A DNA stretch of 63,996 nt, filler included, from Asterionella formosa (taxonomy: Eukaryota), in NCBI GenBank assembly GCA_002256025.1. It is 14 parts of 14 records of this genome, joined end to end, with 100 filler letters (N's around TTAATTAATTAA, not from the genome) between each part and the next. Parts side by side here need not be neighbours in the genome. Positions count along the whole stretch, not along the records: positions 62,616 to 63,996 come from NKIB01002685.1; 13 more parts are not named here. One strand, 5' to 3'. The stretch's first letter is position 1. Every line of letters begins with the position of its first letter. The translations under genes were made by a program, and so were the position numbers. Positions 222 through 63,996 of this stretch are shown here, in pieces. Under the pieces are notes generated by a model, which did not search any database, had not been told where the DNA came from, and worked only from the letters and a program-made list of their open reading frames with translations.

Positions 222-1240
222 GACTCTGTGAATCTTGTTCTTCGCTTCCAGATAACAAGAAGGACTCTGTTGTGGGCCGGTTCCTCTGGAAGAAACAGGC
301 AGGCATTTTTTGTTTCTCCTTGCTTGTCATCACAGAAAGGATGCATCTGAAAGTTCGAGAAATTATGGTAAGCAGTTAATATTTTGGGAAATGGAACAGG
401 TCTTTTGTCACATTGCTGTTGTTCTTTTTGTTGTTGCTCTGCACCGTCGCTCGTTTTCTTTGTCTCGTGTTCGGAACTATGTTTGATTGCTGTTGTAGTT
501 CCTTTACCTCCATTTCGTTCTTCCTCTTACTTGTGCCGTTTGGAATTGGAAAAGTGGTCAGTCATGAACATACTCTGTGAACCTTGTTCTTTTTCTACAG
601 ACAATCAATCTGTTTTTGGCAGGGCAGGGTTGAACCTTGGGAATAATGAAATGCGTCGTGCTCTGCCTGTGTCAGGATGGCTATCAATCATTTGTTATTC
701 GCATTGTTGAAAGGATTCCTCTGGTGCATAGGGGAAAAATGTATACATGGTAAGCAAGTGCAATGTTTTCTTGCCTTCTGCTGATATTGTTTGCTGTTGC
801 TTGTTGTGGGCGGATCTCCTCTCCTATTCTCCTTCGTCTTTGTTCGTAATTGTTAGCGCAGGCATTGCCTATTTGTAATGAATTAGAAGAATGGCTTGAT
901 TTTGTGCTTGTTAATTGTTGATCACGAACTTACTCTGCAAACGCTGTTCTTTGTCTACAGACAATCAATCTGTTGAGCAAGGGATTTGTTGGGAATCAGG
1001 CGGCATGGTAAACACAACAAGAACGATGCCTTTGTAACAATTGTTCGTCCATGAAATCACTCTGCGACCGTTGTTTACTGATTGTAGACAATCAATTTGA
1101 TGAGGGCTGGGTTGGACATTGGGGAACATGGTAAGGAGCACACAGAACCGAAATCATGGCTTCGCAACTTTTGCTATCTCATCAACTCACTCTGCAAATG
1201 CTCTTGCCCTCTTGTTTCTACAGCAGACAATCAATCTGAG
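222..1240 (+). repeat. Degenerate repeated intron-3'-end/short-exon-like module (about 4-5 copies)
   Basis: ACTCTG...pyrimidine tract...YAG followed by ACAATCAAT at ~601, ~961, ~1088, ~1227 (weaker at ~250); several units end in ATG-GTAA (~366, ~747, ~1005, ~1128). No intact frame. Confidence 0.45.
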
Positions 1241-2764
1241 CAATGAGAATGAGCAGCCGGCTCATTTGCTATGAATTGATCGACCAATAGTAGCAACAGG
1301 GACTCCTGCAAGTATGAGTAGCCAGGCAATCTTGTGAGTCGTTACAGCATCCAGCTGCAAGAATGAACATCCATCGCTTGTCGTATTGGTTTGAGAATCA
1401 CATTCTATAGAAAGTATCAATATAGACTATATAGCGAAGCGATTAATTTGATTGATTTTGCGATTGTAGCTAGAATTCAATTTAAACGTTGATTGCTTAA
1501 ACATAATTATTTGCTTGACTAGCATTTATATTTGTTTAACCTTGAGGTATTAATGTGATCAAAGTAAAGATAAAATGGGAGCGAACAAACAGAATTAACG
1601 GTAGTCAGAGTGAAGAATATTTGTGAACGGAAATGTTGCGAATTGTAGAGAAAAGTACCGTATTATAGAGATTATTACTGAACCAATTTTTCTTCGTGTC
1701 GCCAGAAAATATTGTCAGTTGGCCCCAAAAATTATGTGGGTTTTAAAATAATTATGGAAGTTGTCGAAACTATTTTAGTTCACTCCGTTCATATATATTG
1801 TATGATGCATCATAATTTTTTATGTGATGTCATACCCTTAAATTATGTACGTAGCTAAATTCGTCATATTGGGCCACCCAAATAATTAATTTGGGTGATC
1901 ATATTTGACTAGCGTTTTTTTTGTGGCGGCTGTACCAGTAATCGGCGTTGTAGATGTACTAGGTGATGTCACAGCCCTGTTACCATCACGAAAATGTTGA
2001 TCAGCATCACAAACCCAACTTCCACTCCTTCTTAGCTACTTCTTCAATGGGATACATGATCTCTCCTCCCATGCAGATGAATTCACATAAGTAAAGAGCG
2101 TAGTAACCGCAAATACTGAATTTCCTGTAACATAGAAATAATCTTTGTCTACTTTTGCTCTTCATTTGATACTCATGTTGGAATACCATGATCACCTTCT
2201 TGCCTCTAGAAAACTTGAACTCATTTGGTTCCAAAAATTGGTTTGGAAAAAACTTCTTTAACTAACTTATCAATCTAATGAATTGTATTTTTCATGAAGA
2301 TATTCCTTGAATTGACCAACCGGGAACCAAGCACCATGTATTGCAAGGTCACTGATGGCAGCCATAATTGAAATTGCTATATTTATTTAAGCATCTGGTG
2401 AAAAGAAGTGATTCCCCAAAAGCATTTCACTCATGACATAATGAACAGTTCTAAAAGTCTTTGGGGATTCACTTTTGCGCAAGAAACGACGACGGAGATC
2501 TTCAGTAACGTGGTGAGCCGATCAAAGCAAACAAAATGGCGTGATGTTTAGTACACCTATAGGGATAAGGATAATATTTTGTACCAGATCCACGTGGGCT
2601 ACTATAATTATTATTTTAATGTAATCAGCCATATGGTTGCCATACATTTTCATATCTGGGGCTCACAATTATTATTTTAAATATTTACAATAATTCAAGT
2701 GATCAACCAATTATAATCCTTTACAATAGAGTCACTATCTTTTTTCACCTTGTTGGCCTTGAAC

Positions 2765-4021
2765 TCATAAACTATGATGACTTTGAACACCATTGGTGAG
2801 CTTGATGTCACTGCGTTTTGTGCATTTAATTTCCGAGCCATCACTGACAACGACTGTGACACTGACTGGGCGTACATTTGTCATACCGATGTCACTCATT
2901 GTGATATGGGCAGTAGCTCCAGTATCAGCGAGCCAATTCTCCTGTGGGGCAAGAGAGCAAGGAGCAACAGCAGAAGCACAAAACTCTTTGGTATTAATTT
3001 TTACATCAACAATCAATAATTTCCTCACAAATAACAATGAAGGTCCATTCTTTATCATCGTTCTTGTTGTACTTGTTATTCATATCTTGTTTATTTTCAT
3101 TCGCTTCGATGTCTTCATAGTCAATTGCACACATGCCAACAAACATGCCGGTCTCTTTCATAGTATTACTTTCTCATTTGGGTTTGGGGAATCTTTTGCG
3201 ATATGTCCGGCATGGCTGCTTGTTGCAATTAAACACTTAACACCTTTCGGAGGAGGCCTGTTTCCGTATCTGTGCGTCTTGTTCTTGACTCAACAATCGG
3301 CTGCCTTGTGTCCTTGCTTGCCACAAGAGCGGCAGAGTTTTTTGAACTTAGTTCCAAAGGCAGCAAGAGCAAATTCGCCATCCGACTTTTCGTTCTTAAA
3401 CTTGCGTTTGAAGAACGCGCATATCTTGGCCTTAAGGTTGTCTAGTGTTAGAGAGGGCATAGCCTCAACCATTGTTACCGCTTCTGAGTACACCTTAGGT
3501 AGTTTGTCAAGTATGTGGGAAATCATCTCGAGATTCTTCTTTTTGTAGGCAGAATCAATTGTTGCCATTCGATTCCTCAACAACTTGAGTTGGATGAACC
3601 ATTCATCTGGGTCTTGCATCTTCCCCTCACAGATGCACTTGTTGAACTGTCCTGACAGTTGGATTAGGTCACTTGTAGCACTAGGAACATAGCGAGCCTT
3701 GAGGTAGGTCCAAGCAAGGAATGCATCGCCGTCTTGATGATTCTTTGTCTTGGCTTGGTTGACCAAACCGAATGCAATCCCAGTGCAACTCATAACCAGG
3801 AGCTGGTATGTGCGATCGTTCATCTTGTAGATCATCTTGACATCGTCTTTGTCTGTAGTTTCGTAGACAGCATCGCTGCATGGATTGGTATCCTTCATGT
3901 AGGCATTCTTGAATCCTCTTGTCTTGGCTATTGCAAGTGTCTTCACACTCCACTCATGCCAATTGGTGTCCTTGCCATCAAACTTCACAAGGCGAAAGGT
4001 CTCACCTTTGTCTTCAGTCAT
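2765..4021 (-). mobile_element. Degenerate Ty1/copia LTR retrotransposon: gag plus aspartic protease, truncated
   Basis: Gag motifs FDGKDTNWHEW and DGDAFLAWTYLKARY, zinc knuckle CRSCGKQGHKAADC followed by a stop at 3290; copia protease motif WLADTGATAHIT in the 2765-3058 ORF; no integrase or RT downstream. Confidence 0.88.
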
Positions 4022-4612: not shown

Positions 4613-7109
4613 TTACCACTTTATAGTTAACTTGCCCTTGTCTGTATCCTTTGCCGCCACCGCTACATCCAATGAACTGCTTCCTATTCTGGACTCTCCA
4701 CCGTCACTACCTCGTGCCAATAGCCGATCAAATTGACGGTCATTTCTGACCAGCTTGACAGCAGCTTGGACTTGTGTATCAGTTTTGATAGACCGCTCGA
4801 TCAACATGCTTTCAGGCAGGTATCTGGCCAAAATCCCAGTCGCCAAATCTTCCTTGATGTCATCCTGGTACTTGTCAAAGTCCTTAATGACTTCTCGAAC
4901 AATACTCGCTTGGAGCTGCTCCAAATCCCTTGTAGAGCCCTTGTAACCAGATTGTTTTAAGATTTTGCGCAAGTCGTTGATTGGCCCATTATACAGAGCT
5001 TCCAACTTGATGTCTCCATCCTTTTGCTTCTGTTGAACAAACGCTTGAAATTCTTTATAGGTATCGTCATCCACTTGAAATTGATTGGTCAATTCATGAG
5101 TTCGACTCCACTGCGCTGCAAAGTCGTTGACAATACCTGATCGTAGTAACGTGACTTCTAAAGCGGAGGCCTTGGGTGCCACCACTTTGTAATCTACTTC
5201 AATGCCTCCTCCATCTTGAACCTCTCGACCACGTTTGGTGTAGAACGTAGTCTTGTCCTTGTCTGCAACTTTACTTGCTTGGAACTTCCCGCCATCGGCA
5301 GCATTGAGCCCCCCTCCTTCCTTGTATTGAATACCCTGAATGCATCTACCACTGGGAGTATAGTACTTGGCCACAGTGAATTTGAGAGCCGTGTTGAAAG
5401 GCAAGTCTTGGACATTTTGCACCAACCCTTTTCCGAACGTCCTATCTGCCCCGACAATGATTCCAACATCCAAATCTTGAACAGCCCCCGATACAATCTC
5501 AGCGGCGGATGCAGTTCCCCCGTTGACCAACACAGCCAACTTAGTTCTGCTATCCAGTACAGGGTCAATCCTAGATCGATACATGACGCCCGGAAACCCC
5601 CTGCCCTTGGCTGATACAATGTCTGATCCCTTGGGCACTAACAACGACGCCACATCAACTGCCGAAGTTAAGAGTCCACCTGGATTTCCTCGAAGGTCCA
5701 GAACTAGTCCCTTCAAGGAGGTGTCTCCATTGGTAGCATCTTCAGTCAATTGCTGCAAGTACAAAATCGCATTTCTAACTTCCCTCCCAGCATCTGATGC
5801 GAATCCAGTCAGTTGAATGTACCCAATTCCATCCTTGGCGTCACCCAGCAGTGTCGCAAGTTTGACATCCCTGATTCTCACCACAGTCCTCGGGACACTC
5901 ACTGTCTGCACTTCCTTGACTCCTTCTCGTTCAAAGGATACATCTACAAATGTCCCCGGTTCACCCCGTAATCTATTCCTCACTTGATCAACAGTGGTGG
6001 CTGGTCCAATGGTCATGTCATCAATGGCCACAATTTTGTCTCCCACTCGCATTCCAGCATCAAACGCGTATCCTTCAAACGCCGAAATGACCCGAATCCC
6101 ATGATCCTTGACTTGTCGAATGACCTTTTGTTGTTCGGATTCAAAATCCATTTGTTCTTGTTCTTCCTCAGTCAATGCTGCTGCTGACGACATTTCCCCA
6201 CTATTGAACAATAGATTCTTACTCTTCTTGATTGGTGCAACTGTTGCTGATTCATCCTTCTCACCTCCCTGTATCATGGCCAGATCCTTGGGAGTAGCAC
6301 CAGAAATGACCAACCCTACTCCACCATACTTTCCATCAATACTTTCATTCAATTCTACTGCTTGTGACTTGCCTTCAAATTCTGTGTATGGATCTAGCGA
6401 TTGCAACATGGCAGACACTCCCGTTTCAAATAGTTTTTGTGTGTCCACCTCATCGACATAGGCTCTATCCAAATCCGTGAGAATGGTTTCAAATAGAGTA
6501 ACAGGTTCCGTAAGAGATTCAACTTGTGTGTAAACGGGAACAACAATGACGGCCAATGTTATAATGGTCCCAGTGATAAAGGACAAGACAGCAAGTTGTA
6601 GAGAAGGTAACCAAAGAGAGAACTTTTCAGACAACAAGTCAAGAAACGTGAGGAGTCTATCGGGCAGCTTGTCTCGTAGTTGGAGGAGGATGGAGTCTAG
6701 AGTGAGTAGGATCTTGTTCACGCTCTTGTTCTTCTTGTTGTTGCTGTTCTTGGCCATGTCAAGCCGACTCATCGAGGTCGTCCTTCGAGACAAAATGGGA
6801 GTGGGCTTCCAGCATAATGTTCGAAGCCTAGCCCCATTTGGAGTAATATCGGACATGGTTAGTACAATGCAGTGCAATGCAATGCAATACAATACAATAC
6901 TACGCAATAGGACCGCATGGAACGCACCATTTGTCGTGCTTTCCGAGTTTCTGAAGGTCCACATCATTGGAAATCACTCGCGGCAACCCAAGTGCATTTC
7001 TCCGTCCAGCGGAAGAGACAAAGGCGTCAGTGCCGCTGTTGCAAGATGCAAGAAGAAACAGCAACAGCAGCAGCGGTGCAGGATCATCATGTCGCAAAGG
7101 ATTCTTCAT
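4613..7109 (-). CDS. C-terminal processing peptidase (S41A, CtpA/Prc-like, PDZ domain), probably plastid-targeted; 2 exons (7109-6928, 6827-4613)
   Basis: Motifs LDPYT, GVGL, GYIQL, LDLRGNPGGLL, TASAAEIVSGA (catalytic Ser), TFGKGLVQ (Lys). GT-AG intron 6927-6828 with TACTAAC branch site keeps the frame (KHDKW|LRTL). Exon 1 has a signal peptide ending TDA-FVS. Confidence 0.92.
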
Positions 7110-22936: not shown

Positions 22937-23036
22937 NNNNNNNNNNNNNNNNNNNNNNNNNNNNNNNNNNNNNNNNNNNNTTAATTAATTAANNNNNNNN
23001 NNNNNNNNNNNNNNNNNNNNNNNNNNNNNNNNNNNN
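22937..23036. other. Artificial contig linker N44-TTAATTAATTAA-N44 (also at 45965, 47470, 48975, 50480, 51997, 53500, 55002, 56505, 58008, 59511, 61014, 62516)
   Basis: Identical 100-nt spacer with stop codons in all six frames, repeated 13 times. Confidence 0.98.
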
Positions 23037-50185: not shown

Positions 50186-50579
50186 TAAGTTTGAAATCAA
50201 ATACGCTGCATACCGGTATTGATGTGGTATTCCTGTGTCGCTGTGGTTTCCTTGGCTGCTGTGTACCCTGGTACCAGGTACCTATCTTACCGGGACATAT
50301 GCATTATGATGGGAAAAAGCAGAGCACAAAAAGAATACTGGTATGTACGGTACATACAGTTTACAAAACTGAATCGTTGGCTGTGCTTGGCACTGCACAC
50401 CCATTTGAAGACAACACCATGAATATGGATTACCATACTGTACTTACTACGTATGTACTAGTACCTACCTGGTTGATGCNNNNNNNNNNNNNNNNNNNNN
50501 NNNNNNNNNNNNNNNNNNNNNNNTTAATTAATTAANNNNNNNNNNNNNNNNNNNNNNNNNNNNNNNNNNNNNNNNNNNN

Positions 50580-51996
50580 GTAATATTCCATCGTGTGGAT
50601 GCAAGAACAATTGTGATTCAAATGAAGACTGCCTGGATGTGTCAACTTTGTCAGCACCATTGTGTTCATTGTTTATCATCATTTCATTCCTCATTCCATT
50701 CAACTGGTCCTTAATTCCCTCTAGGTTTGATCCAACAACCTTCTGAATTAACTGAACCATTCGAGACTCCGACAATACACCTCCAAATGTCCGATCATCA
50801 AGCATTTTTTCGAATTCCTTTAGCAGTGATGGTCCAAGTGCCTGTAGTTCGCCTCTCATGCTCCTGATGGCTGCAAGATGGGCAACATGAGGAGGTATAC
50901 CTGTTAACTTCACAGCAAATGAGGATTCTTCCTCACATGAAAGATATCGAACAAAAATATGTTCATCAAGTGCCAAAAACTCCCTTGATGTGTAGATAGC
51001 AGTCTTACTCACTGCCGACTTGTCAGTACAAAGTTGTTGGAGATGTTTTCTGTGGTGCAGGATACATGCTACTAGTCCAACACGAAGAAATGGAAGCACC
51101 ATACTAACTTGCCAGTGAATCACATCACCAAACAGGGAACGTAAAGCCAGAATCACTTTTCCATCAAGCTCTGTTTGCTTTACTCGTGCATTTGCATCAT
51201 TGGGGTTTCGAATCCAAAAGTTTGGTTCTGAAACCGCAAAACAAGCAGATAGCACCACTGGCAATCCAGCCAATATTCGACCAACATGCATAGTGGTCAC
51301 CTGCCTTTTCATAAAGCATATAGACATCTCACACAGTGCCTAATGTCCAACCACCTCGATTGTTGATTGCTACACTTGATGGACTTGCTGTAGAGCCACT
51401 CGATGCATATGTTGTTGCACCCTTCCTGATGCTGTGAGTACCAATATCCTCCACCTCATATCCATCTAGATCGCCTTCATGTCCATGTAACAACCTCTTG
51501 ATAATTTTTCTGAATCGATCTTCCTGCTCTGCACCAGGAAACAATAGACCATCTGTATCTTGTAGAATTTTCCGGAAAGCATGTCATGTACTCAAACAAT
51601 GCAGTTATTGGGCACAATGCAAAATCTTCAGGGTTGGTGTAGCAGTGTCAGGGCTTGAAATTCTTGGAGCCATCTTGATCATTTTTTGTATGAGAAAATC
51701 GAATCCCCACAGCATCTTGACTCCAAACCAAATGCTTGATACAGACACCATCAGTACTACTATCAACACAGCACATCAAATTCCAAGTTAGACATAAAAA
51801 TGCACGTGCAAAAACAGCTGATGGAGAGCCATCTTCAATCAACCATATGCTTATTTTTCGGTACAGGTTGATTGTCAATTCACGTTTTCCTTCCTCAAGG
51901 CTACCCATCCCATCTTGTTTTGCCTTACTTGCAATTCGTTTGACGCCAGCAATGAGATCTTTCAGCTCATCATCAAAGTCGTCTGTAACCTTCATC
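50580..51996 (-). mobile_element. Crypton-like tyrosine recombinase transposon fragment, copy 1 (frameshifted)
   Basis: TWNLMC, HTKNDQ, LFPG, GTHSIRKGA (HxxR), RGGW...VY; stops and frameshifts; catalytic Arg codon changed to Cys. Confidence 0.85.
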
Positions 51997-52096
51997 NNNN
52001 NNNNNNNNNNNNNNNNNNNNNNNNNNNNNNNNNNNNNNNNTTAATTAATTAANNNNNNNNNNNNNNNNNNNNNNNNNNNNNNNNNNNNNNNNNNNN

Positions 52097-53499
52097 GGAG
52101 CTCATATGTGCTAAATTTGATGTGTCTTGATATGGTGACAAGGAAGGGCATACTGTTGACAAACATGATGTCACCTGCAAGTGTCACAACACGGTACTTG
52201 TCGATAATCCCGGCGGGGATGGTGGTAGAGCTGGTCCTCACTGGCACTGAACCACGGTGCACTGTTTTCCCTTTTAGCGAGCCCACATCGGGCCCGAAGA
52301 TTTGTTCTGCCGCTATAATGTCATCGCGTGTGATTGGGCAGTTTGGGAACAGGTTTTTCTCGACAATCTTGATGAATGTGCGGGTACTAGGACGCCCAAT
52401 AACCTTCTGTATCTTTCGGGCTAGCACAGCTTGTGAGTAGTCACGTTGGGAGTAGCTAGTACGGTTATCGTCTACCGTATTGATAAGGGTGACTCCAGAG
52501 CGATCCTTTGTATCCATGTAGTATAGGCCTTTCATTGATTCTTTGAACACTCTATAAGTTCCGTCATGTTTGTGAACATGGAATGCATTGCCCTGGCTGC
52601 TATCAAATGTTACCCTGTATCCATGCTCCTTGACACGTGCGAGGGACAGGATGTTCGCGATTCCCTTTGGGTTGTACCATACTGTTCCATATCCATGAAG
52701 GTCTCCTATGAGTTGGGTGCTGACTATACCAGCGTTGCAGTGGATATCCATCTTACTGGTGTGGACACGGATGTTGCGTAGGAGTTCCGCGTTATGGAAC
52801 ACATCAACTGTTGACTGATTGTCTAATAGTATCCATGTACGTGGTAGCCTTCCATCGGGCCCAATTTTCAGACTCACTCCTCCTTGATTTAGAAATTGGA
52901 AGTGTACATTTTCCTCGAATTCTCCCTCATGCACACCATCCATTAGTAGTGTGGTGGCGGACTGGGTCGATGTCGTTTCAGTTGTGGGAGGAGTACTGGT
53001 GGTCAAATTCCTAGGGACAGGTGCAGGCTCCTCACATTCCGTAGCGTAGTGCCCCTTCTTTTGGCATCGGTGGCACATGATGTGTGCCTTTCCTTTTGGC
53101 CTTTTCCGCGCGCCATTCTCGCTGTTGTTGTTCAGTGTCGTTCCATCTTCGTCATTCACATTGTGAAAGGATACGCCGTCACCAACTGCCCCTACTTCGC
53201 GTAGCCCATGCCGTGGATCCTGCTTCCAGTTTGTTAGTAGATGGTAGGCTGCACTGACGGTCTCGGGGTAGTTGTTTCGTCCTTGTAGGAAGTCGTTCTC
53301 CATATTTTCAACCAGACGGCCGTAGCGTACACGATCAGCTCCTACTAGGAATGCTACTGCTGTGAATCGCTCGAGTACCTCTGCCTTGAGTTCACTTAAC
53401 TGTTGATCATTCATGTTCTCCTTGCTAGTTGTCTTTTCATTCAGAATCATGTTCTCGATTCCTGAGTCGCCAGCAATGGTCCCTCCGCTGTGATCAATA
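52097..53499 (-). mobile_element. CoDi-like copia gag-protease-integrase N-part, copy 1 (open frame)
   Basis: LVENMENDF..G.NNYP, zinc knuckle CHRCQKKGHYATEC, protease WILLDNQST, ANILSL, CPITRDDI..A..IFGPD..SLKGKT, DIMFVN. Confidence 0.9.
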
Positions 53500-53599: not shown

Positions 53600-54562
53600 C
53601 AACTTGGCAGTGTACAGCTTCCACCAGTTGTAACCATCGGGGATTTCATCTGCCTTCAGTTTCTTCTCCGTAACAATTTTCATGTACTGTGTAAGTTTAC
53701 ACATACAGTCAGTGAACGAATTATGAAACTCACGGAGAGATCCTCTTTCAGTAAGACAGAGTTTGTCCAACACCTTGTTGTACTTTTTGATCCAGTGAAT
53801 GACCAATTCTTCCCCTTCGTAGTATCCACGGAGTTTGTGCCAAGCTTCATGTCCATCATGCTCCTCATTGGTGGTGAGTGCCAATCTTGCAACTGCTGTA
53901 GTTGAGATGGAAGCAACCAACATGCCCCAGACAAGGCTGTTTTCATCAGGGTTCCTATGGGCATAGTTTCTGGATTTGATCACCTTGATGAGGTTCGAGG
54001 TTGCAAAATGCCCGATACTCTGCTGGCTCCATTCCAACCAATCTCCGTGGTCGCCGGAAAATTGTCTGAGCTGCTGGACAGGTGTAGTGAAGACACGTTG
54101 GACTGATTTGTTCCCGGGCCCCCAGTGCACAAGAGGTGCTGGGGTGGGCCAGTTATGAGCTACATGGCTGTAGCGAGCTGCCACTTCACGTTCCATCTCG
54201 TAGAAGTCCTCCGGGATCTCCTCAATTTCCAAGAGCTGCCACTTAGCTAAGACAGTAAGCCATTCGAGAGCAGGTTGGACTGAATTGATAAATGCTGGGC
54301 TTTGGATTTGGTGAACGTTAAGGACGTTGCGCAGGTTGTCCATCCCAGTCACTTTCATGGTGGAAAGGATTTTCCGCATTGCAACAGCATCAGTATACCC
54401 ATCTTCATTGGGGTCATCCGAATGCCTAAGATCGACAAGGAGAAGATCGAGGATCATCTGATTTAGCTCGGGAGATATGCTTTCAACATTATTCTGCACG
54501 GCCACAATGGCATCGACCGCACGGTTGTGAATAGGTAGATCCATATTTGGGCTGGTACTCAT
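53600..54562 (-). mobile_element. Copia-type gag-like ORF, N-terminal part
   Basis: FSGDHGDWLEW and DGHEAWHKLRGYYEG resemble copia gag motifs; frame open to the contig end. Confidence 0.7.
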
Positions 54563-55001
54563 CTGTGTGTTCGAGATAACGTGTTAGTCAGTTTTATAAA
54601 CAAAGGTGATCATCGGGTCTTTATTCTTTTTGTTATTGTAATTTTCCTTTCAGAATTTACGTATGAACGAACGAACAAACGAACGAAGAACGAACGAACG
54701 ATCGAATATATAATGGAAGATACGATAGGGTTCGTGGATTTGGACCCCCTCATCCCCGAGGGGTTGATTGTCATGTCGTAAACAAGACATCCTCCCTTGA
54801 ATATTGTACATGCGTTACTTATGCGGGTCACACTTGGATATCCCTGGCCGGGATCCTCCACAGCCACCTCCACACATTGAATCCCCTTAGGAATAGAGAG
54901 CCAGAAATGAACTTTGCTACTTTAGGCCACTTCCGTATGGGTCTGATGGTCCATTGCTGATGAAATCCAGCTTTCCGTTCGCTCCGGGTGCATTACTACC
55001 G
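54563..55001 (-). ncRNA. Structured 5' leader upstream of gag, homologous to 63842-63992
   Basis: 107-nt ungapped match to the last contig, several hairpins, a (TTCG)n tract, and GACTAAC...CAG directly before the ATG. Confidence 0.55.
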
Positions 55002-55101
55002 NNNNNNNNNNNNNNNNNNNNNNNNNNNNNNNNNNNNNNNNNNNNTTAATTAATTAANNNNNNNNNNNNNNNNNNNNNNNNNNNNNNNNNNNNNNNNNNN
55101 N

Positions 55102-56504
55102 GGAGCTCATATGTGCTAAATTTGATGTGTCTTGATATGGTGACAAGGAAGGGCATACTGTTGACAAACATGATGTCACCTGCAAGTGTCACAACACGGT
55201 ACTTGTCGATAATCCCGGCGGGGATGGTAGTAGAGCTGGTCCTCACTGGCACTGAACTACGGTTCACTGTTTTCCCTTTTAGCGAGCCCACATCGGGCCC
55301 GAAGATTTGTTCTGCCGCTATAATGTCATCGCGTGTGATTGGGCAGTTTGGGAAGAGGTTGTTCTCGACAATCTTGATGAATGTGCGGGTACTAGGATGC
55401 CCAATAATCTTCTGTATCTTTCGGGCTAGCACAGCTTGTGAGTAGTCACGTTGGGAGTAGCTAGTACGGTTATCGTCTACCATATTGATAAGGGTGACTC
55501 CAGAGCGATCCTTTGTATCCATGTAGTATAGGCCTTTCATTGATTCTTTGAACACTCTATAAGTTCCGTCAGGTTTGTGAACATGTAATGCATTGCCCTG
55601 GCTGCTATCAAATGTTACCCTGTATCCATGCTCCTTGACACGTGCGAGGGACAGGATGTTCGCGATTCCCTTTGGGTTGTACCATACTGTTCCATATCCA
55701 TGAAGGTCTCCTATGAGTTGGGTGCTGACTATACCAGCGTTGCAGTGGATATCCATCTTACTGGTGTGGACACGGATGTTGCGTAGGAGTTCCGCGTTAT
55801 GGAACACATCAACTGTTGACTGATTGTCTAATAGTATCCATGTACGTGGTAGCCTTCCATCGGGCCCAATTTTCAGACTCACTCCTCCTTGATTTAGAAA
55901 TTGGAAGTGTACATTTTCCTCGAATTCTCCCTCATGCACACCATCCATTAGTAGTGTGGTGGCGGACTGGGTTGATGTCGTTTCAGCTGTGGGAGGAGTA
56001 CTGGTGGTCAAATTCCTAGGGACAGGTGCAGGCTCCTCACATTCCGTAGCGTAGTGCCCCTTCTTTTGGCATCGGTGGCACATGATGTGTGCCTTTCCTT
56101 TTGGCCTTTTCCGCGCGCCATTCTCGCTGTTGTTGTTCAGTGTCGTTCCATCTTTGTCATTCACATTGTGAAAGGATACGCCGTCACCAACTGCCCCTAC
56201 TTCGTGTAGCCCATGCCGTGGATCCTGCTTCCAGTTTGTTAGTAGATGGTAGGCTGCACTGACGGTCTCGGGATAGTTGTTTCGTCCTTGTAGGAAGTCG
56301 TTCTCCATATTATCAACCAGACGGCCGTAGCGTACACGATCAGCTCCTACTAGGAATGCTACTGCTGTGAATCGCTTGAGTACCTCTGCCTTGAGTTCAC
56401 TTAACTGTTGATCATTCATGTTCTCCTTGCTAGTTGTCTTTTCATTCAGAATCATGTTCTCGATTCCTGAGTCGCCAGCAATGGTCCCTCCGCTGTGATC
56501 AATA
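55102..56504 (-). mobile_element. CoDi-like copia gag-protease-integrase N-part, copy 2
   Basis: Same length and breakpoints as 52097-53499, about 17 substitutions by eye; open frame. Confidence 0.9.
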
Positions 56505-56604
56505 NNNNNNNNNNNNNNNNNNNNNNNNNNNNNNNNNNNNNNNNNNNNTTAATTAATTAANNNNNNNNNNNNNNNNNNNNNNNNNNNNNNNNNNNNNNNN
56601 NNNN

Positions 56605-58007
56605 GTAATATTCCATCGTGTGGATGCAAGAACAATTGTGATTCAAATGAAGACTGCCTGGATGTGTCAACTTTGTCAGCACCATTGTGTTCATTGTTTA
56701 TCATCATTTCATTCCTCATTCCATTCAACTGTTCCTTAATTCCCTCTAGGTTTGATCCAACAACCTTCTGAATTAACTGAACCATTCGAGACTCCGACAA
56801 TACACCTCCAAATGTCCGATCATCAAGCATTTTTTCAAATTCCTTTAGCAGTGATGGTCCAAGTGCCTGTAGGTCGCCTCTCATGCTCCTGATGGCTTCA
56901 AGATAGGCAACATGAGGAGGTATACCTGTTAACTTCACAGCAAATGAGGATTCTTCCTCACATGAAAGATATCGAACAACAATACTATGTTCATCAAGTG
57001 CCAAAAACTCCCTTGATGTGTAGATAGCAGTCTTACTCACTGCCGACTTGTCAGTATGAAGTTGTTGGAGATGTTTTCTGTGGTGCAGGATACATGCTAG
57101 TCCAACACAAAGAAATGGAAGCACCATAACTTGCCGGTGAATCACATCACCAAACAGGGAACGTAAAGCCAGAATCACTTTTCCATCAAGCTCTGTTTGC
57201 TTTACTCGTGCATTTGCATCATTGGGGTTTCGAATCCAAAAGTTTGGTTCTGAAACCGCAAAACGAGCAGATAGCACTGGCAATCCAGCCAATATTCGAC
57301 CAACATAGTGGTCACCTGCCCTTTCATAAAGCATATAGACATCTCGCACAGTGCCTAATGTCCAACCACCTCGATTGTTGATTGCTACACTTGATGGACT
57401 TGCTGTAGAGCCACTCAATGCAAATGTTGTTGCACCCTTCCTGATGCTGTGAGTACCAATATCCTCCACCTCATATCCATCTAGATCGCCTTCATGTCCA
57501 TGTAACAACCTCTTGATAATTTTTCTGAATCAATCTTCCTGCTCTGGACCAGGAAACAATAGACCATCTGTATCTTGTAGAATTTCCGGAAAGCATGTCA
57601 TGTACTCAAACAATGCAGTTATTGGGCACAATGCAAAATCTTCAGGGCTGGTGTAGCAGTGTCGGGGCTTGAAATTCTTGGAGCCATCTTGATCATTTTT
57701 TGTATGAGAAAATCGAATCCCCACAGCATCTTGACTCCAAACCAAATGCTTGATACAGACACCATCAGTACTATCAACACGGCACATCAAATTCCAAGTT
57801 AGACATAAAAATGCACGTACAAAAACAGCTGATGGAGAGCCATCTTCAATCAACCATATGCTTATTTTTCGGTACAGGTCGATTGTCAATTCACGTTTTC
57901 CTTCCTCAAGGCTACCCATCCCATCTTGTTTTGCCTTACTTGCAATTCGTTTGACGCCAGCAATGAGATCTTTCAGCTCATCATCAAAGTCGTCTGTAAC
58001 CTTCATC
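56605..58007 (-). mobile_element. Crypton-like tyrosine recombinase transposon fragment, copy 2 (one premature stop)
   Basis: TWNLMCR, HTKND, PRHCY, CPITAL, GTHSIRKG, RGGW...RDVY in one frame, broken only by CGA>TGA at 57530-32. Confidence 0.88.
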
Positions 58008-58942
58008 NNNNNNNNNNNNNNNNNNNNNNNNNNNNNNNNNNNNNNNNNNNNTTAATTAATTAANNNNNNNNNNNNNNNNNNNNNNNNNNNNNNNNNNNNN
58101 NNNNNNNGGCACAGTGTGAATTGCAATCACGTTTTGTTGGTTTGCTGATCAATGCCAGTACAGACGAAGCATTTTGCTTCTTGGTGCTGAAAGGAAAATT
58201 CAGATTGCAACAAAAATATTTGGTTTTCAATCCAGTGTCGCAGGAAATTTCAGAGAAGGAACGATATTCGTCATTCTACTGATTTTGTCGACATTGGTGG
58301 GAAACCACTTATCAAAACAAGTGTGAGGGAAGAAAGTTCAGTTTCAAATGGTCTCACTGATCAATGGACTGATGATATTGATTTACTCGGTTATTATAAG
58401 GAAATCTACACTGGACTTTCACAAAAGAATCGATCTGAATATGGAAGTAATCCTAGTGGTTTTGCTACTTCCACAACAAATATCAGCTACCCACACTCAT
58501 ACTTCTCATTTCCCAATGTAAGTGAAGAGGATATGCATCAATATGTTGAACCACTTCAACCAAATGTTCCTGAGAAGAATATTGATTACAATGAAAGCAT
58601 TAATCAACGGGACATTGATGACAACGTTGATTTTGAATGGATCTAATAGAATCCAATGCATGCTTAGTTAGTACCGTAGTTACATAATAAAAATAGTTCT
58701 TGTAAGACTTCTACAATGCACAAACCATATCATAGATGTTAGGAAAACATTGATGTTACTCTATACTACTAGTAGTGGCGCCTGTACTGTATGTAGCGGT
58801 ATACCTCCATTTTTACTACTATGGTGGAGTGATAATTTCACAACTCTGTTTTGTCCAGCACAGCATGATCGGAGTGATGCTAAATTTATTATTAATAATT
58901 CATTTTCATGATATCCTGTTCATATCCTGAATTTGTCATCAT

Positions 58943-62515: not shown

Positions 62516-62795
62516 NNNNNNNNNNNNNNNNNNNNNNNNNNNNNNNNNNNNNNNNNNNNTTAATTAATTAANNNNNNNNNNNNNNNNNNNNNNNNNNNNN
62601 NNNNNNNNNNNNNNNTATCTTAATTAATAACGGTACCTGGTACCAGTAGTCTACCATGTACCTGGTAAATTGTATGTACATACCGGTTGGAGGGTAGGAG
62701 TACCAAGTACCAGGTACCAGGTACCAGGTACGAAGTACGAGGTACGTAGTCTACCCTTAAGTCTACTGGATGGTACCGGTACCATGTACCTGGTA

Positions 62796-62943
62796 CCTGT
62801 GCAAGTTGCGGTAATTTTGCCGAAACTAAAGATTTATCATACCGGTAGCTATGTAGTTTTATCCCAGATGAAATTGTTTGTTTACCGGTACCTGGTACCT
62901 GGTACCTGGTACCTGGTAAGCAAAATGACCGCAACTTGCTTGG
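62796..62943. mobile_element. Second copy of the 96-nt MITE, expanded by TA-anchored insertions, within a TACC(W)GG-rich cluster (62632-63066)
   Basis: Inverted repeat GCAAGTTGCGGTAATTTTGC (62801-20) / GCAAAATGACCGCAACTTGC (62920-39); TA flanks; aligns to 31744-31839. Confidence 0.82.
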
Positions 62944-63409
62944 TATGCATGCACTGTAGACAAATACAGGTAAATATGCTTCTTGTTCGCGTCGAGTGTC
63001 GAAGGGCCATGTCCCGGTATGTATGATACCAGTACCAGGTACCTGGTACCAGTAGTCTACCAGGTAGTGTGTCGTTCGTATGTATGAGGTGGTAAGAGAG
63101 ATGATGGTGAAGAAAGGTTTTAGAGTCAGGTTCCACAGTACGTATTTTGTACATTGTATACCTAGGGCGGTCGTTTTGAGAAAAGGTTCATGAAGGACAT
63201 TGTCAGTACATGCGAGATGTGTAGAAGTACCATCTTAAAGTTATGGATACAATAGACAATAGTCCAGCCAAATGTTTCGTCGTATAATATTGTATTACAT
63301 TTGTAGTGATTTGCAGTACGGGCCTGCCTACTGTTGTGAAGACTGAAACTGAAACTGAAACTGAAACCAAAACCGCATGCTAACTCTAGCATTCGTGCTC
63401 ACTCGTAAA

Positions 63410-63996
63410 ACGGTGGGTTATAGGGAGTATCGTGCTGCATTTTCTTGCAGTGTGCCGCATACCTTGCCGTAGTGAAAACTCGGCAGAAAGACCGCGTGGT
63501 TGCCTGTAGAGTCACAAGAACAACGGCGGTTGCAACAGCACAGCTGTCAGGTACACATAGTACATTGGCATGTAGCTCCTACGGGCAAGCGATGAAAGTA
63601 GTGATTCCAACTACTGTAATATACTCACTGCCTGATCAAGGACGGGGTCACACAAAACCTCGTGGGGAGTAATCCCCCTTTGTGTGATAGACTGGGACTA
63701 CCTCCAGGTTTAGGTCTATCGGGTACGAAGCAATATGGAGGGACTGCATCTATACGTACGTTGTGATGTGGGTAGCAGGAGTCGTACGGCGAATGCGATG
63801 CTGCAGGAGCATAATAAACCTGCACGGATCCATGCACCAACCGGGAGTAACGCACCCGGAGGGTACGGGAAGCTATTTTCCAGCAGCAATGGACCACCAG
63901 ACCCTTATGGAAGAGGCCTAGAGTAATCTAGATCCTGACTGGCTCTCTGTGTAGGGAACGAACCTATAACCCGGTTAGTTCCCGAGGGGATTGCCT
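63410..63996 (+). ncRNA. Candidate large structured RNA, probably a retrotransposon 5' leader
   Basis: Dense hairpins with GAAA, UACG, GUAA (x2) and GGAA tetraloops on the + strand; 3' part homologous to the leader of the gag at 54562. Confidence 0.6.

Follow-up and report, generated by a model that had tools for sequence, protein, structure and literature searches.

In retroviral leaders, the major 5′ splice site lies in the LTR or just behind it, and in R for foamy viruses and HTLV/BLV. Among LTR retrotransposons, the CoDi elements of diatoms carry ORF1 upstream of ORF2 (Maumus et al. 2009, PMC2806351). The same paper describes the Blackbeard LTR, of only 163 bp, as an instance of short LTRs that can be complete promoters, and a CoDi Gag that often occurs without a CCHC finger, the finger being reported for CoDi6.2-6.5 only (PMC2806351). 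The words 'intron' and 'leader' are absent from its main text (PMC2806351). In plants, Ty1/Copia elements are described as producing a short, gag-only RNA through alternative splicing (Oberlin et al. 2017, PMC5580714).

Here we analyse a region of Asterionella formosa DNA, positions 63410-63996 of a longer stretch of 63,996 nucleotides that we call the window. An initial annotation, made from the sequence alone, had read the region as about 600 nt of densely structured, tetraloop-rich RNA. In our analysis it is probably composed of three things in a row: a flank, the 5′ LTR of a copia-type element (63546-63939) and a PBS-like block with the start of a leader.

With retroviral leaders the locus would share a splice donor placed in the terminal repeat or leader, and downstream sequences kept by the unspliced RNA only. 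In retroviruses, however, Gag is made from unspliced RNA and splicing serves the downstream genes, whereas here splicing would serve Gag. As in the Ty1/copia CoDi elements of diatoms described in the main text of PMC2806351, we find a separate gag ORF, a short candidate LTR, a high copy number and active transcription. Unlike in that description (PMC2806351), the termini are GT...AC; the likeness is one of description. As in plant Ty1/Copia (PMC5580714), the host spliceosome would make a separate Gag mRNA and the unspliced RNA would stay full-length. The intron of the plant elements, however, has the protease domain at its centre, lies downstream of gag and is coupled to premature termination (PMC5580714), whereas the putative intron described here lies upstream of gag, starts inside the LTR and would remove the PBS and the leader.

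Results

Two units meet at position 63545/63546

The window consists of pieces joined by 100-nt N linkers with a six-frame stop in mid-linker. The region under study belongs to the last piece, which spans 62616-63996 (1381 nt) and is among a dozen unplaced pieces of ~1.4 kb. The stretch is present, whole or in part, in 20 public runs from 12 studies, six of these runs being RNA. Four runs were compared with the contig: X1, X2 (polyA RNA), X3 (DNA) and X17 (metatranscriptome).

In X2, X3 and X17, the runs with listed pieces at this place, there is a break at 63545/63546, where the left unit runs on into different sequence (loose ends, agreement 1.0). Seen from the right, the sequence found 5′ of 63546 is equally foreign. 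In X2 record 24, a 5596-nt RNA contig with 0 mismatches over 63546-63996, it amounts to 4806 nt of other sequence; in X3 record 30, whose match starts at 63546, to 523 nt of unlike sequence; and in X17 record 15, whose match starts at 63544, to 28 nt. Sequencing depth at 63415-63555 is 1226-3301 in X2 vs 114 to the right, and 11025-31493 in X17 vs 467 to the right. As the runs break at this joint and the depths differ sharply, the first 136 nt of the region belong to another unit than the rest. The features on the left side are:

62616..63545, + strand: flanking unit, repeat-rich, with (GGTACCT)n runs
62801-62939, + strand: MITE-like unit of 139 nt within the flank, from repeat analysis

The last 162 nt of the flank (63384-63545) are abundant in the RNA runs, and we take 63410-63545 to be, with fair probability, the terminal part of an unrelated unit that is rich in repeats and transcribed. 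The alternative continuation of this unit gave 0 matches in the window. An inverted repeat that spans the joint, 62785-802/63538-55, probably arises from the GGTACC motifs. Further upstream, 63086-63367 is without cover in X2, a gap that gives no evidence for a transcription start.

Two other identities were considered and set aside. The left unit as an LTR ending in CA at the joint was dropped, the CA placement having been 10 nt off. A rDNA spacer, organelle rRNA or RNA-virus UTR came into question because many environmental runs contain the stretch; it was rejected on the grounds of no Rfam rRNA match, the link to gag and the repeat edges of the unit. On the taxonomic side, an S41 peptidase gene in another piece of the window (4616-6973) has a closest cluster that is mostly eukaryotic, with Bacillariophyta as the commonest group (with a very high score), which we record as a lead only towards a diatom.

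A candidate 5′ LTR followed by a PBS-like block

To the right of the joint lies a second unit with the following parts:

63546..63939, + strand: candidate 5′ LTR of a copia-type element, 394 nt, delimited by branch points in independent runs and by a terminal inverted repeat
63546..63551, + strand: left arm of the terminal inverted repeat, GTCAGG, pairing with 63934-63939
63934..63939, + strand: right arm of the terminal inverted repeat, CCTGAC, pairing with 63546-63551
63940..63948, + strand: PBS-like block TGGCTCTCT, a TGG-starting 9-mer, directly 3′ of the LTR and identical in the sister copy
63940..63996, + strand: start of the internal leader, cut by the window end and crossed in full by X2 record 24 and X3 record 30

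Both edges of the 394-nt unit are discrete, with differing sequence outside: 63544-63546 on the left (X2, X3 and X17) and 63939 on the right (X17 records 15 and 16, X3 record 31). At the right edge, X17 record 15 ends at 63939 and record 16 begins at 63910, a 30-nt overlap of the kind found at a graph branch. The match of X3 record 31 also stops at 63939, and the record then continues for 66 nt. Two others, X2 record 24 and X3 record 30, pass through 63939 and extend 339 and 88 nt beyond the window.

The edges coincide with the arms of a 6-nt inverted repeat. Its chance at two fixed places is 1 in 4096, a generous figure since the right arm was sought after the left edge had been seen. The termini read GT...AC, as opposed to the canonical TG...CA of LTRs. 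In the 13 nt before the PBS-like 9-mer, 7 positions differ between the region's copy and its sister; the 9-mer itself is identical, and the alignment ends right after it. No tRNA gene occurs in the window with which the putative PBS block could be matched. Together, the sharp edges, the terminal inverted repeat and the conserved TGG block suggest, on sequence grounds, a 5′ LTR with a PBS adjoining it.

Only the 5′ end of the element is visible: the contig stops ~20 nt after the window, before any second LTR, PPT, pol or target-site duplication. An AATAAA at 63813..63818 (+), in the loop of the hairpin 63802-63824, is a possible polyadenylation signal, whose use we infer. The X2 RNA contig, which runs from 4.8 kb of other sequence into the unit and on into the leader, appears to be what one would expect from the RNA of an LTR element assembled through its terminal repeat.

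This delimitation changes the reading of the region as one leader RNA of ~0.6-0.9 kb at the 5′ end of a copia element. The copia assignment stands for the right-hand non-coding part. The single leader does not: the left 136 nt (63410-63545) are another unit, and 63546-63939 is a discrete repeat with edges of its own. As the latter behaves as a 394-nt terminal repeat, most of the supposed leader is therefore LTR.

A sister copy stands upstream of a copia-type gag-like ORF

The initial annotation had pointed to a homology with 54895-55001, which we recover: 63842-63948 aligns to it on the opposite strand with 78.5% identity over 107 nt, ungapped. It is the only homologue of the region within the window, and it belongs to a sister family with these features:

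54895..55001, − strand: sister-family copy of 63842-63948, with the end of ORF0 (a short reading frame described below), the LTR end and the PBS-like block
54563..54894, − strand: leader of the sister copy, comprising the rest of the putative intron and ending in GACTAACACGTTATCTCGAACACACAG directly before an ATG
53600..54562, − strand: copia-type gag-like ORF of the sister copy, running into the contig end

The sister copy is placed 333 nt upstream of the ORF 54562-53600. The gag-like family to which this ORF belongs is abundant in public assemblies, in forms of 381, 387, 440 and 488 aa; its clusters count 17 and 62 members, and most of its contigs measure 2-10 kb. The Pfam family Retrotran_gag_2 gave a weak match in six of seven family members (best E 0.005), the only printed score being below the cut-off. 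A profile search against 1.84 billion representatives returned 89 distant relatives at E ≤ 1e-3, all of at most 585 aa.

We scanned 67 of these 89, an unsystematic choice that omitted the six closest or fragmentary ones and 16 that were mostly short. Retrotran_gag_2 was found at E ≤ 1e-3 in 20 of the 67, five of them above the Pfam curated cut-off; the others were two with Retrotrans_gag only, one weakly matching SR-25 and 44 without a match. As distant relatives match Retrotran_gag_2, the ORF 54562-53600 is a copia-type gag by transitive homology. The search found no longer, fused Gag-Pol relatives, which is weak evidence. With no Gag-Pol fusion found, and all 89 relatives of at most 585 aa, the term 'copia-type' is therefore taken from gag.

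An AlphaFold model of the gag-like protein has a mean pLDDT of 32.9, and a profile search against solved structures gave a single, meaningless match (E 0.32). Within the window, no pol is linked to the 63546-63939 unit. DNA patterns returned 0 matches, with two searched in metagenome_contigs (the first of which spanned the variable places 63899 and 63900), two in viral_contigs and one in genome_contigs; protein-profile scans of viral_contigs and genome_contigs gave no relative. A copia-type Gag downstream of the putative 5′ LTR is seen in the sister copy only, the two families aligning over just 107 nt; the gag of the region's own copy would lie beyond the window.

A short reading frame inside the candidate LTR

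The region had been described as free of any long ORF. This is correct; yet an ORF of 63 codons fills a third of it:

63735..63926, + strand: short ORF, here 'ORF0', 63 codons and a stop, starting with MEGLHLY, with an uninterrupted frame and a shared stop position in the two families

We consider it rather unlikely, though worth weighing, that the region is mainly protein-coding, with ORF0 (longer in the sister family) as a real small protein that explains the conservation. Two families whose ORF0 proteins are 73% identical share an uninterrupted frame and the positions of its start and stop, and the frame is called on 41 contigs. Over the 84 comparable nt (28 codons) there are 16 differences, half of them at third codon positions. 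They produce seven synonymous and eight non-synonymous changed codons; for the two alternative frames, counted across the 107 nt, the figures are 1/17 and 2/16. Identity between the copies is 81% inside ORF0 and 68% in the 22 nt behind it, and beyond the TGG block the sequences are unalignable.

The same comparison is, however, small, with just 28 codons covered at the DNA level. In a placement simulation, so few residue changes arise with P = 0.13, or P = 0.06 when the kept frame and stop are added. Gene callers moreover list open frames only and so hide broken copies, of which P0042 is one: it carries a deletion that comes with a change of frame, and it lacks a GT-compatible codon at the donor described below. 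The upstream extension of ORF0 in the sister family is closed in the region's copy by a 1-nt difference, and none of seven short frames from the contig had a Pfam match under E 0.08. Altogether, the pattern of conservation in ORF0 gives a hint of coding constraint.

A putative intron that begins in the candidate LTR

The first codons of ORF0 lead directly to a candidate splice donor:

63756..63996, + strand: start of a putative spliceosomal intron, donor GTACGT at 63756, continuing beyond the window

In the region's copy, the ATG at 63735 opens seven codons (MEGLHLY) that end in TAC/GTACGT, the slash marking the boundary at 63756. The sister copy provides the acceptor, a CAG at 54565-54563 (−), with its AG at 54564-54563, in the context CAG/ATG. 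About 20 nt upstream of this acceptor stands a CTAAC, which we take to be a branch-point-like motif. The boundaries are GT...AG and in phase 0, with donor and acceptor coming from different copies; by analogy with the sister copy, the putative intron would measure ~526 nt.

Two forms of protein in the databases correspond to the two possible readings. In the 440-aa proteins P0001, P0013 and P0016 (3 + 8 + 4 = 15 contigs), ...MEGLHFY is directly joined to MSTSPN...; that is, 53 residues ending in SIGYVAIMEGLHFY are followed by the start of the ORF at 54562. The 109-aa P0041 and its relatives (26 contigs) share the same 53 residues and then continue, unspliced, with VSFDVGS...GSGLK and a stop, in the frame of 55000-54920. 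Another 15 contigs, with P0040 and its relatives, read on unspliced as well, bringing the unspliced total to 41.

The spliced form is found in the sister family only. We treated the database proteins as gene calls collinear with their contigs; among them are one with V as its first residue and one that its source labels 'hypothetical protein'. On that assumption, the 440-aa form stems from intron-less sequences; were the proteins eukaryotic gene models, the intron would be a prediction only. The X2 RNA contig crosses 63755/63756 unspliced, which counts against efficient splicing of the region's copy, and no RNA read across the splice joint was seen in the compared runs. From the boundary signals and the two protein forms, an intron beginning inside the LTR is likely.

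Local hairpins without a conserved fold

All eight hairpins that had been listed for the region are present, and each folds as described when taken alone. We computed their pair probabilities in context, with a partition function over 63384-63996 and with a ninth hairpin, H9 (63841-59), added. The mean pair probability is 0.88-1.00 for 63597-615, the inner GGGGA/UCCCC stem 63664-77, 63687-719, 63918-31 and H9, and 0.55-0.72 for 63434-51, 63465-85 and 63802-24. Two of the claimed elements fare worse. The 'perfect 9-bp' stem 63648-56/63679-87 exists in the sequence but reaches only 0.24 in context; the CC-UACG-GG hairpin, likewise present as sequence, has a pair probability of 0.00. The best-folding part is:

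63597..63719, + strand: stretch with the hairpins 63597-615, 63648-687 (GUAA loop) and 63687-719, supported by pair probabilities and by the z of the enclosing piece

The qualification 'tetraloop-rich' was overstated. On the + strand there are three GNRA/UNCG loops with stems of at least 3 bp, and 0 on the − strand, vs an expectation of 1.54 from 1000 dinucleotide shuffles (P = 0.20). What remains of it are the loops on stems of at least 5 bp, two observed vs 0.22 expected (P = 0.019).

Compared with shuffles, the whole region folds modestly better on the + strand (z −2.51, 0/100 shuffles as good); on the − strand z is −1.69, with 7/100 shuffles as good. By part, the + strand gives −0.59 for 63384-63545, −2.84 for 63546-63755 and −1.54 for 63756-63996. 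The middle piece, at −0.65 on its − strand, is the sole part that stands out, and its 210 nt were delimited after the fact. As background we took 51 windows of 210 nt on both strands; these 102 values have a mean of −0.22 and a standard deviation of 1.10, one of them being as low as −2.84 or lower and 8 in 100 reaching −2 or below.

In agreement with the initial annotation, which recognised no known family, Rfam (release 15, whole window) gave 0 matches at the gathering score. At E ≤ 10, the best match in 62616-63996 is a H/ACA snoRNA model with 19.6 bits vs a gathering score of 100, and the remaining ones are miRNA models on GGTACC repeats. Nothing supports the ribozyme or IRES that had been suggested, and neither has an Rfam match.

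The comparison of the two copies is limited to two sequences and 107 nt. Their consensus fold has −12.7 kcal/mol over 163 columns, with 2 of 26 consensus pairs changed on both sides. Their alignment shows that the sister copy does not preserve the GUAA hairpin 63918-31. Folding of the sister leader, 54563-55001, is at the level of its shuffles (z −0.05, 50/100 as good). Conservation between the two families tracks ORF0, not the helices.

Sequence variants in the four runs are of two kinds. Those at 63595, 63604, 63694 and 63728 affect no stem position, and 63713 G>A converts a G-U into an A-U pair; base pairs are lost through 63824 A>T and through 63843 G>A. The interval 63605-63693 has no listed variant, but at the observed density 89 variant-free nt would be expected ~8 times in 100 by our own arithmetic. 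The variants are too few to decide for or against structure.

A functional cis-acting RNA in 63597-63719, for instance a signal for packaging or dimerisation or a regulator resembling the TAR or poly(A) hairpins, would concern this core only and not the whole 600 nt. In its favour are the z of the enclosing 63546-63755, lower on the + strand than on the − strand and matched by one of 102 control values, together with three hairpins (63597-615, 63664-77 and 63687-719) at pair probabilities of 0.88-0.96. The variant-free stretch fits as well, as do the five variants at 63595-63728, confined to loops, bulges, unpaired bases or the G-U to A-U change, and the AATAAA in the loop of 63802-24. Against these stand the choice of the piece after the fact, the low pair probability of the 9-bp stem, the two pair-breaking variants, the chance expectation for the variant-free stretch and the Rfam result. 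The only comparable homologous stretch, which lies outside 63597-63719, moreover has no shared fold. We hold a cis-acting RNA to be improbable.

The hairpins are probably the ordinary local structure of such sequence, and no conserved RNA fold is shown. The initial annotation had named outcomes that would speak against its structured RNA, and our results come near to two of them: folding exceeds that of shuffles only modestly, and in the sister leader it does not exceed it at all, while the conserved part coincides with a short reading frame. The single folded RNA domain is rejected, and 63410-63996 looks like flanking repeat DNA joined to an LTR and the start of its leader.

The joint between flank and candidate LTR

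The joint 63545/63546 is itself absent from the listed pieces of X2, X3 and X17, and it could be an assembly chimera instead of an insertion. In another reading, which we hold to be very unlikely, the whole contig is a chimera of two repeats, and 63546-63939 is not an LTR but some unspecific repeat or a section of a longer leader. This would suit the absence of the joint, the origin of the contig among many unplaced ~1.4-kb pieces joined by linkers and the termini other than TG...CA. Against it, independent runs branch at both edges, a 6-nt inverted repeat marks these edges, the conserved TGG block follows directly behind, and the place of the unit ahead of a copia-type gag is in keeping with a 5′ LTR.

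Discussion

Reading 63546-63939 as a 5′ LTR, and starting from the observed edges, sequence signals and two protein forms, we propose a pathway in which every use of the RNA is inferred. The LTR would supply both the start and the end of the element's RNA. Within it, the AUG at 63735 would be followed, seven codons on, by the 5′ splice site at 63756. Splicing to the acceptor directly before the gag AUG would remove the remainder of the LTR, the PBS and the leader, the last reaching the gag start ~285 nt beyond the window if the sister copy is a guide. The start encoded by the LTR would thereby be joined in frame to Gag, and the resulting mRNA would be suited to Gag translation. RNA left unspliced would keep the PBS and could act as template for reverse transcription; on it, the same AUG would read the 63-codon ORF.

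In its full form, the proposal is of a family that has the Gag start codon and the main 5′ splice site in its LTR. Spliced RNA would give Gag, and unspliced RNA would be the template and carry the conserved ORF0, with the hairpins 63597-63719 and the AAUAAA hairpin 63802-24 regulating the fate of the transcript. We put this forward as a tentative possibility. If true, tasks would be divided between spliced and unspliced RNA much as in retroviruses, except that Gag would come from the spliced form. To our knowledge, such an arrangement has not been described for copia elements; a literature search, not aimed at exclusion, found none.

For the region itself, the consequences are simpler. The undescribed 600-nt structured RNA does not hold, and there is no need to pursue it as a new RNA family. 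Left in its place is an LTR with clear limits, which belongs to a copia-type family that is active and widely sampled. Its likely leader intron, starting in the LTR, would add a splicing strategy different from that of plant copia elements.

Transcription and repeats in the flanking DNA

The final 162 nt of the repeat-rich flanking unit, 63384-63545, have a depth in the RNA runs 10-60 times that of their surroundings. Contigs of the polyA RNA run X2 start at 63384, and past 63545 the flanking unit continues into other sequence in other runs. Inspected by eye, the + strand of this segment contains no ATG; its folding energy against shuffles gives a z of only -0.59. An abundant transcript of another element or gene may have its 5' end in this segment.

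By far the highest read depth of the contig lies further upstream, over a MITE-like unit, reaching 1.4 million in public run X1 and 12600 in metatranscriptome X17.

62801-62939: MITE-like unit, 139 nt, with 20-nt terminal inverted repeats (62801-20 and 62920-39, 95%)

It is flanked by (GGTACCT)n runs, and many contigs of the aligned runs break at 62800/62801.

Organization and redundancy of the contig chain

The contigs of the window are joined by 100-nt N linkers carrying TTAATTAATTAA (region 16127-62615; linkers at 22937, 45965, 47470 and onwards to 62516), through which window features are not to be read. Between 46065 and 62515, linkers separate 11 pieces of 1402-1417 nt each, after which comes the 1381-nt piece containing the region under study. 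Some of the small unplaced contigs have near-identical stretches in common (97-100% over runs of 32-300 nt), and thus appear from their sequence to be copies of one another, which suggests that the assembly holds redundant repeat fragments.

50480-52048 and 56505-58059: pair with near-identical stretches in common
51997-52296 and 55002-55301: second pair of this kind

Other coding sequences of the window

4616-6973, - strand: C-terminal processing peptidase of the S41 family that carries PDZ domains; Pfam E 1.8e-42
52098-53498 and 55103-56503, - strand: two near-identical open frames of 467 codons, with a weak CCHC zinc-knuckle match

The peptidase most closely resembles a protein cluster mainly from diatoms. 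The two 467-codon frames, whose zinc-knuckle match (E 5e-4) is under the cut-off, probably represent pieces of gag or gag-pol from a different family of retroelements.

Database proteins of the gag-like family, represented in the window by the ORF 54562-53600 (-), differ at the N-terminus, which is either MSTSPNMDLPIHN... or MVLSFRNHAVHAN... (comparison of P0001 and P0011 with P0002 and P0020). The C-terminus likewise comes in two versions: one is short and finishes in ...KKRKKFEK, the other is longer by about 100 residues. Because N- and C-terminal alternatives are found in mixed combinations, these sequences suggest recombination between subfamilies, or further splicing or deletion.
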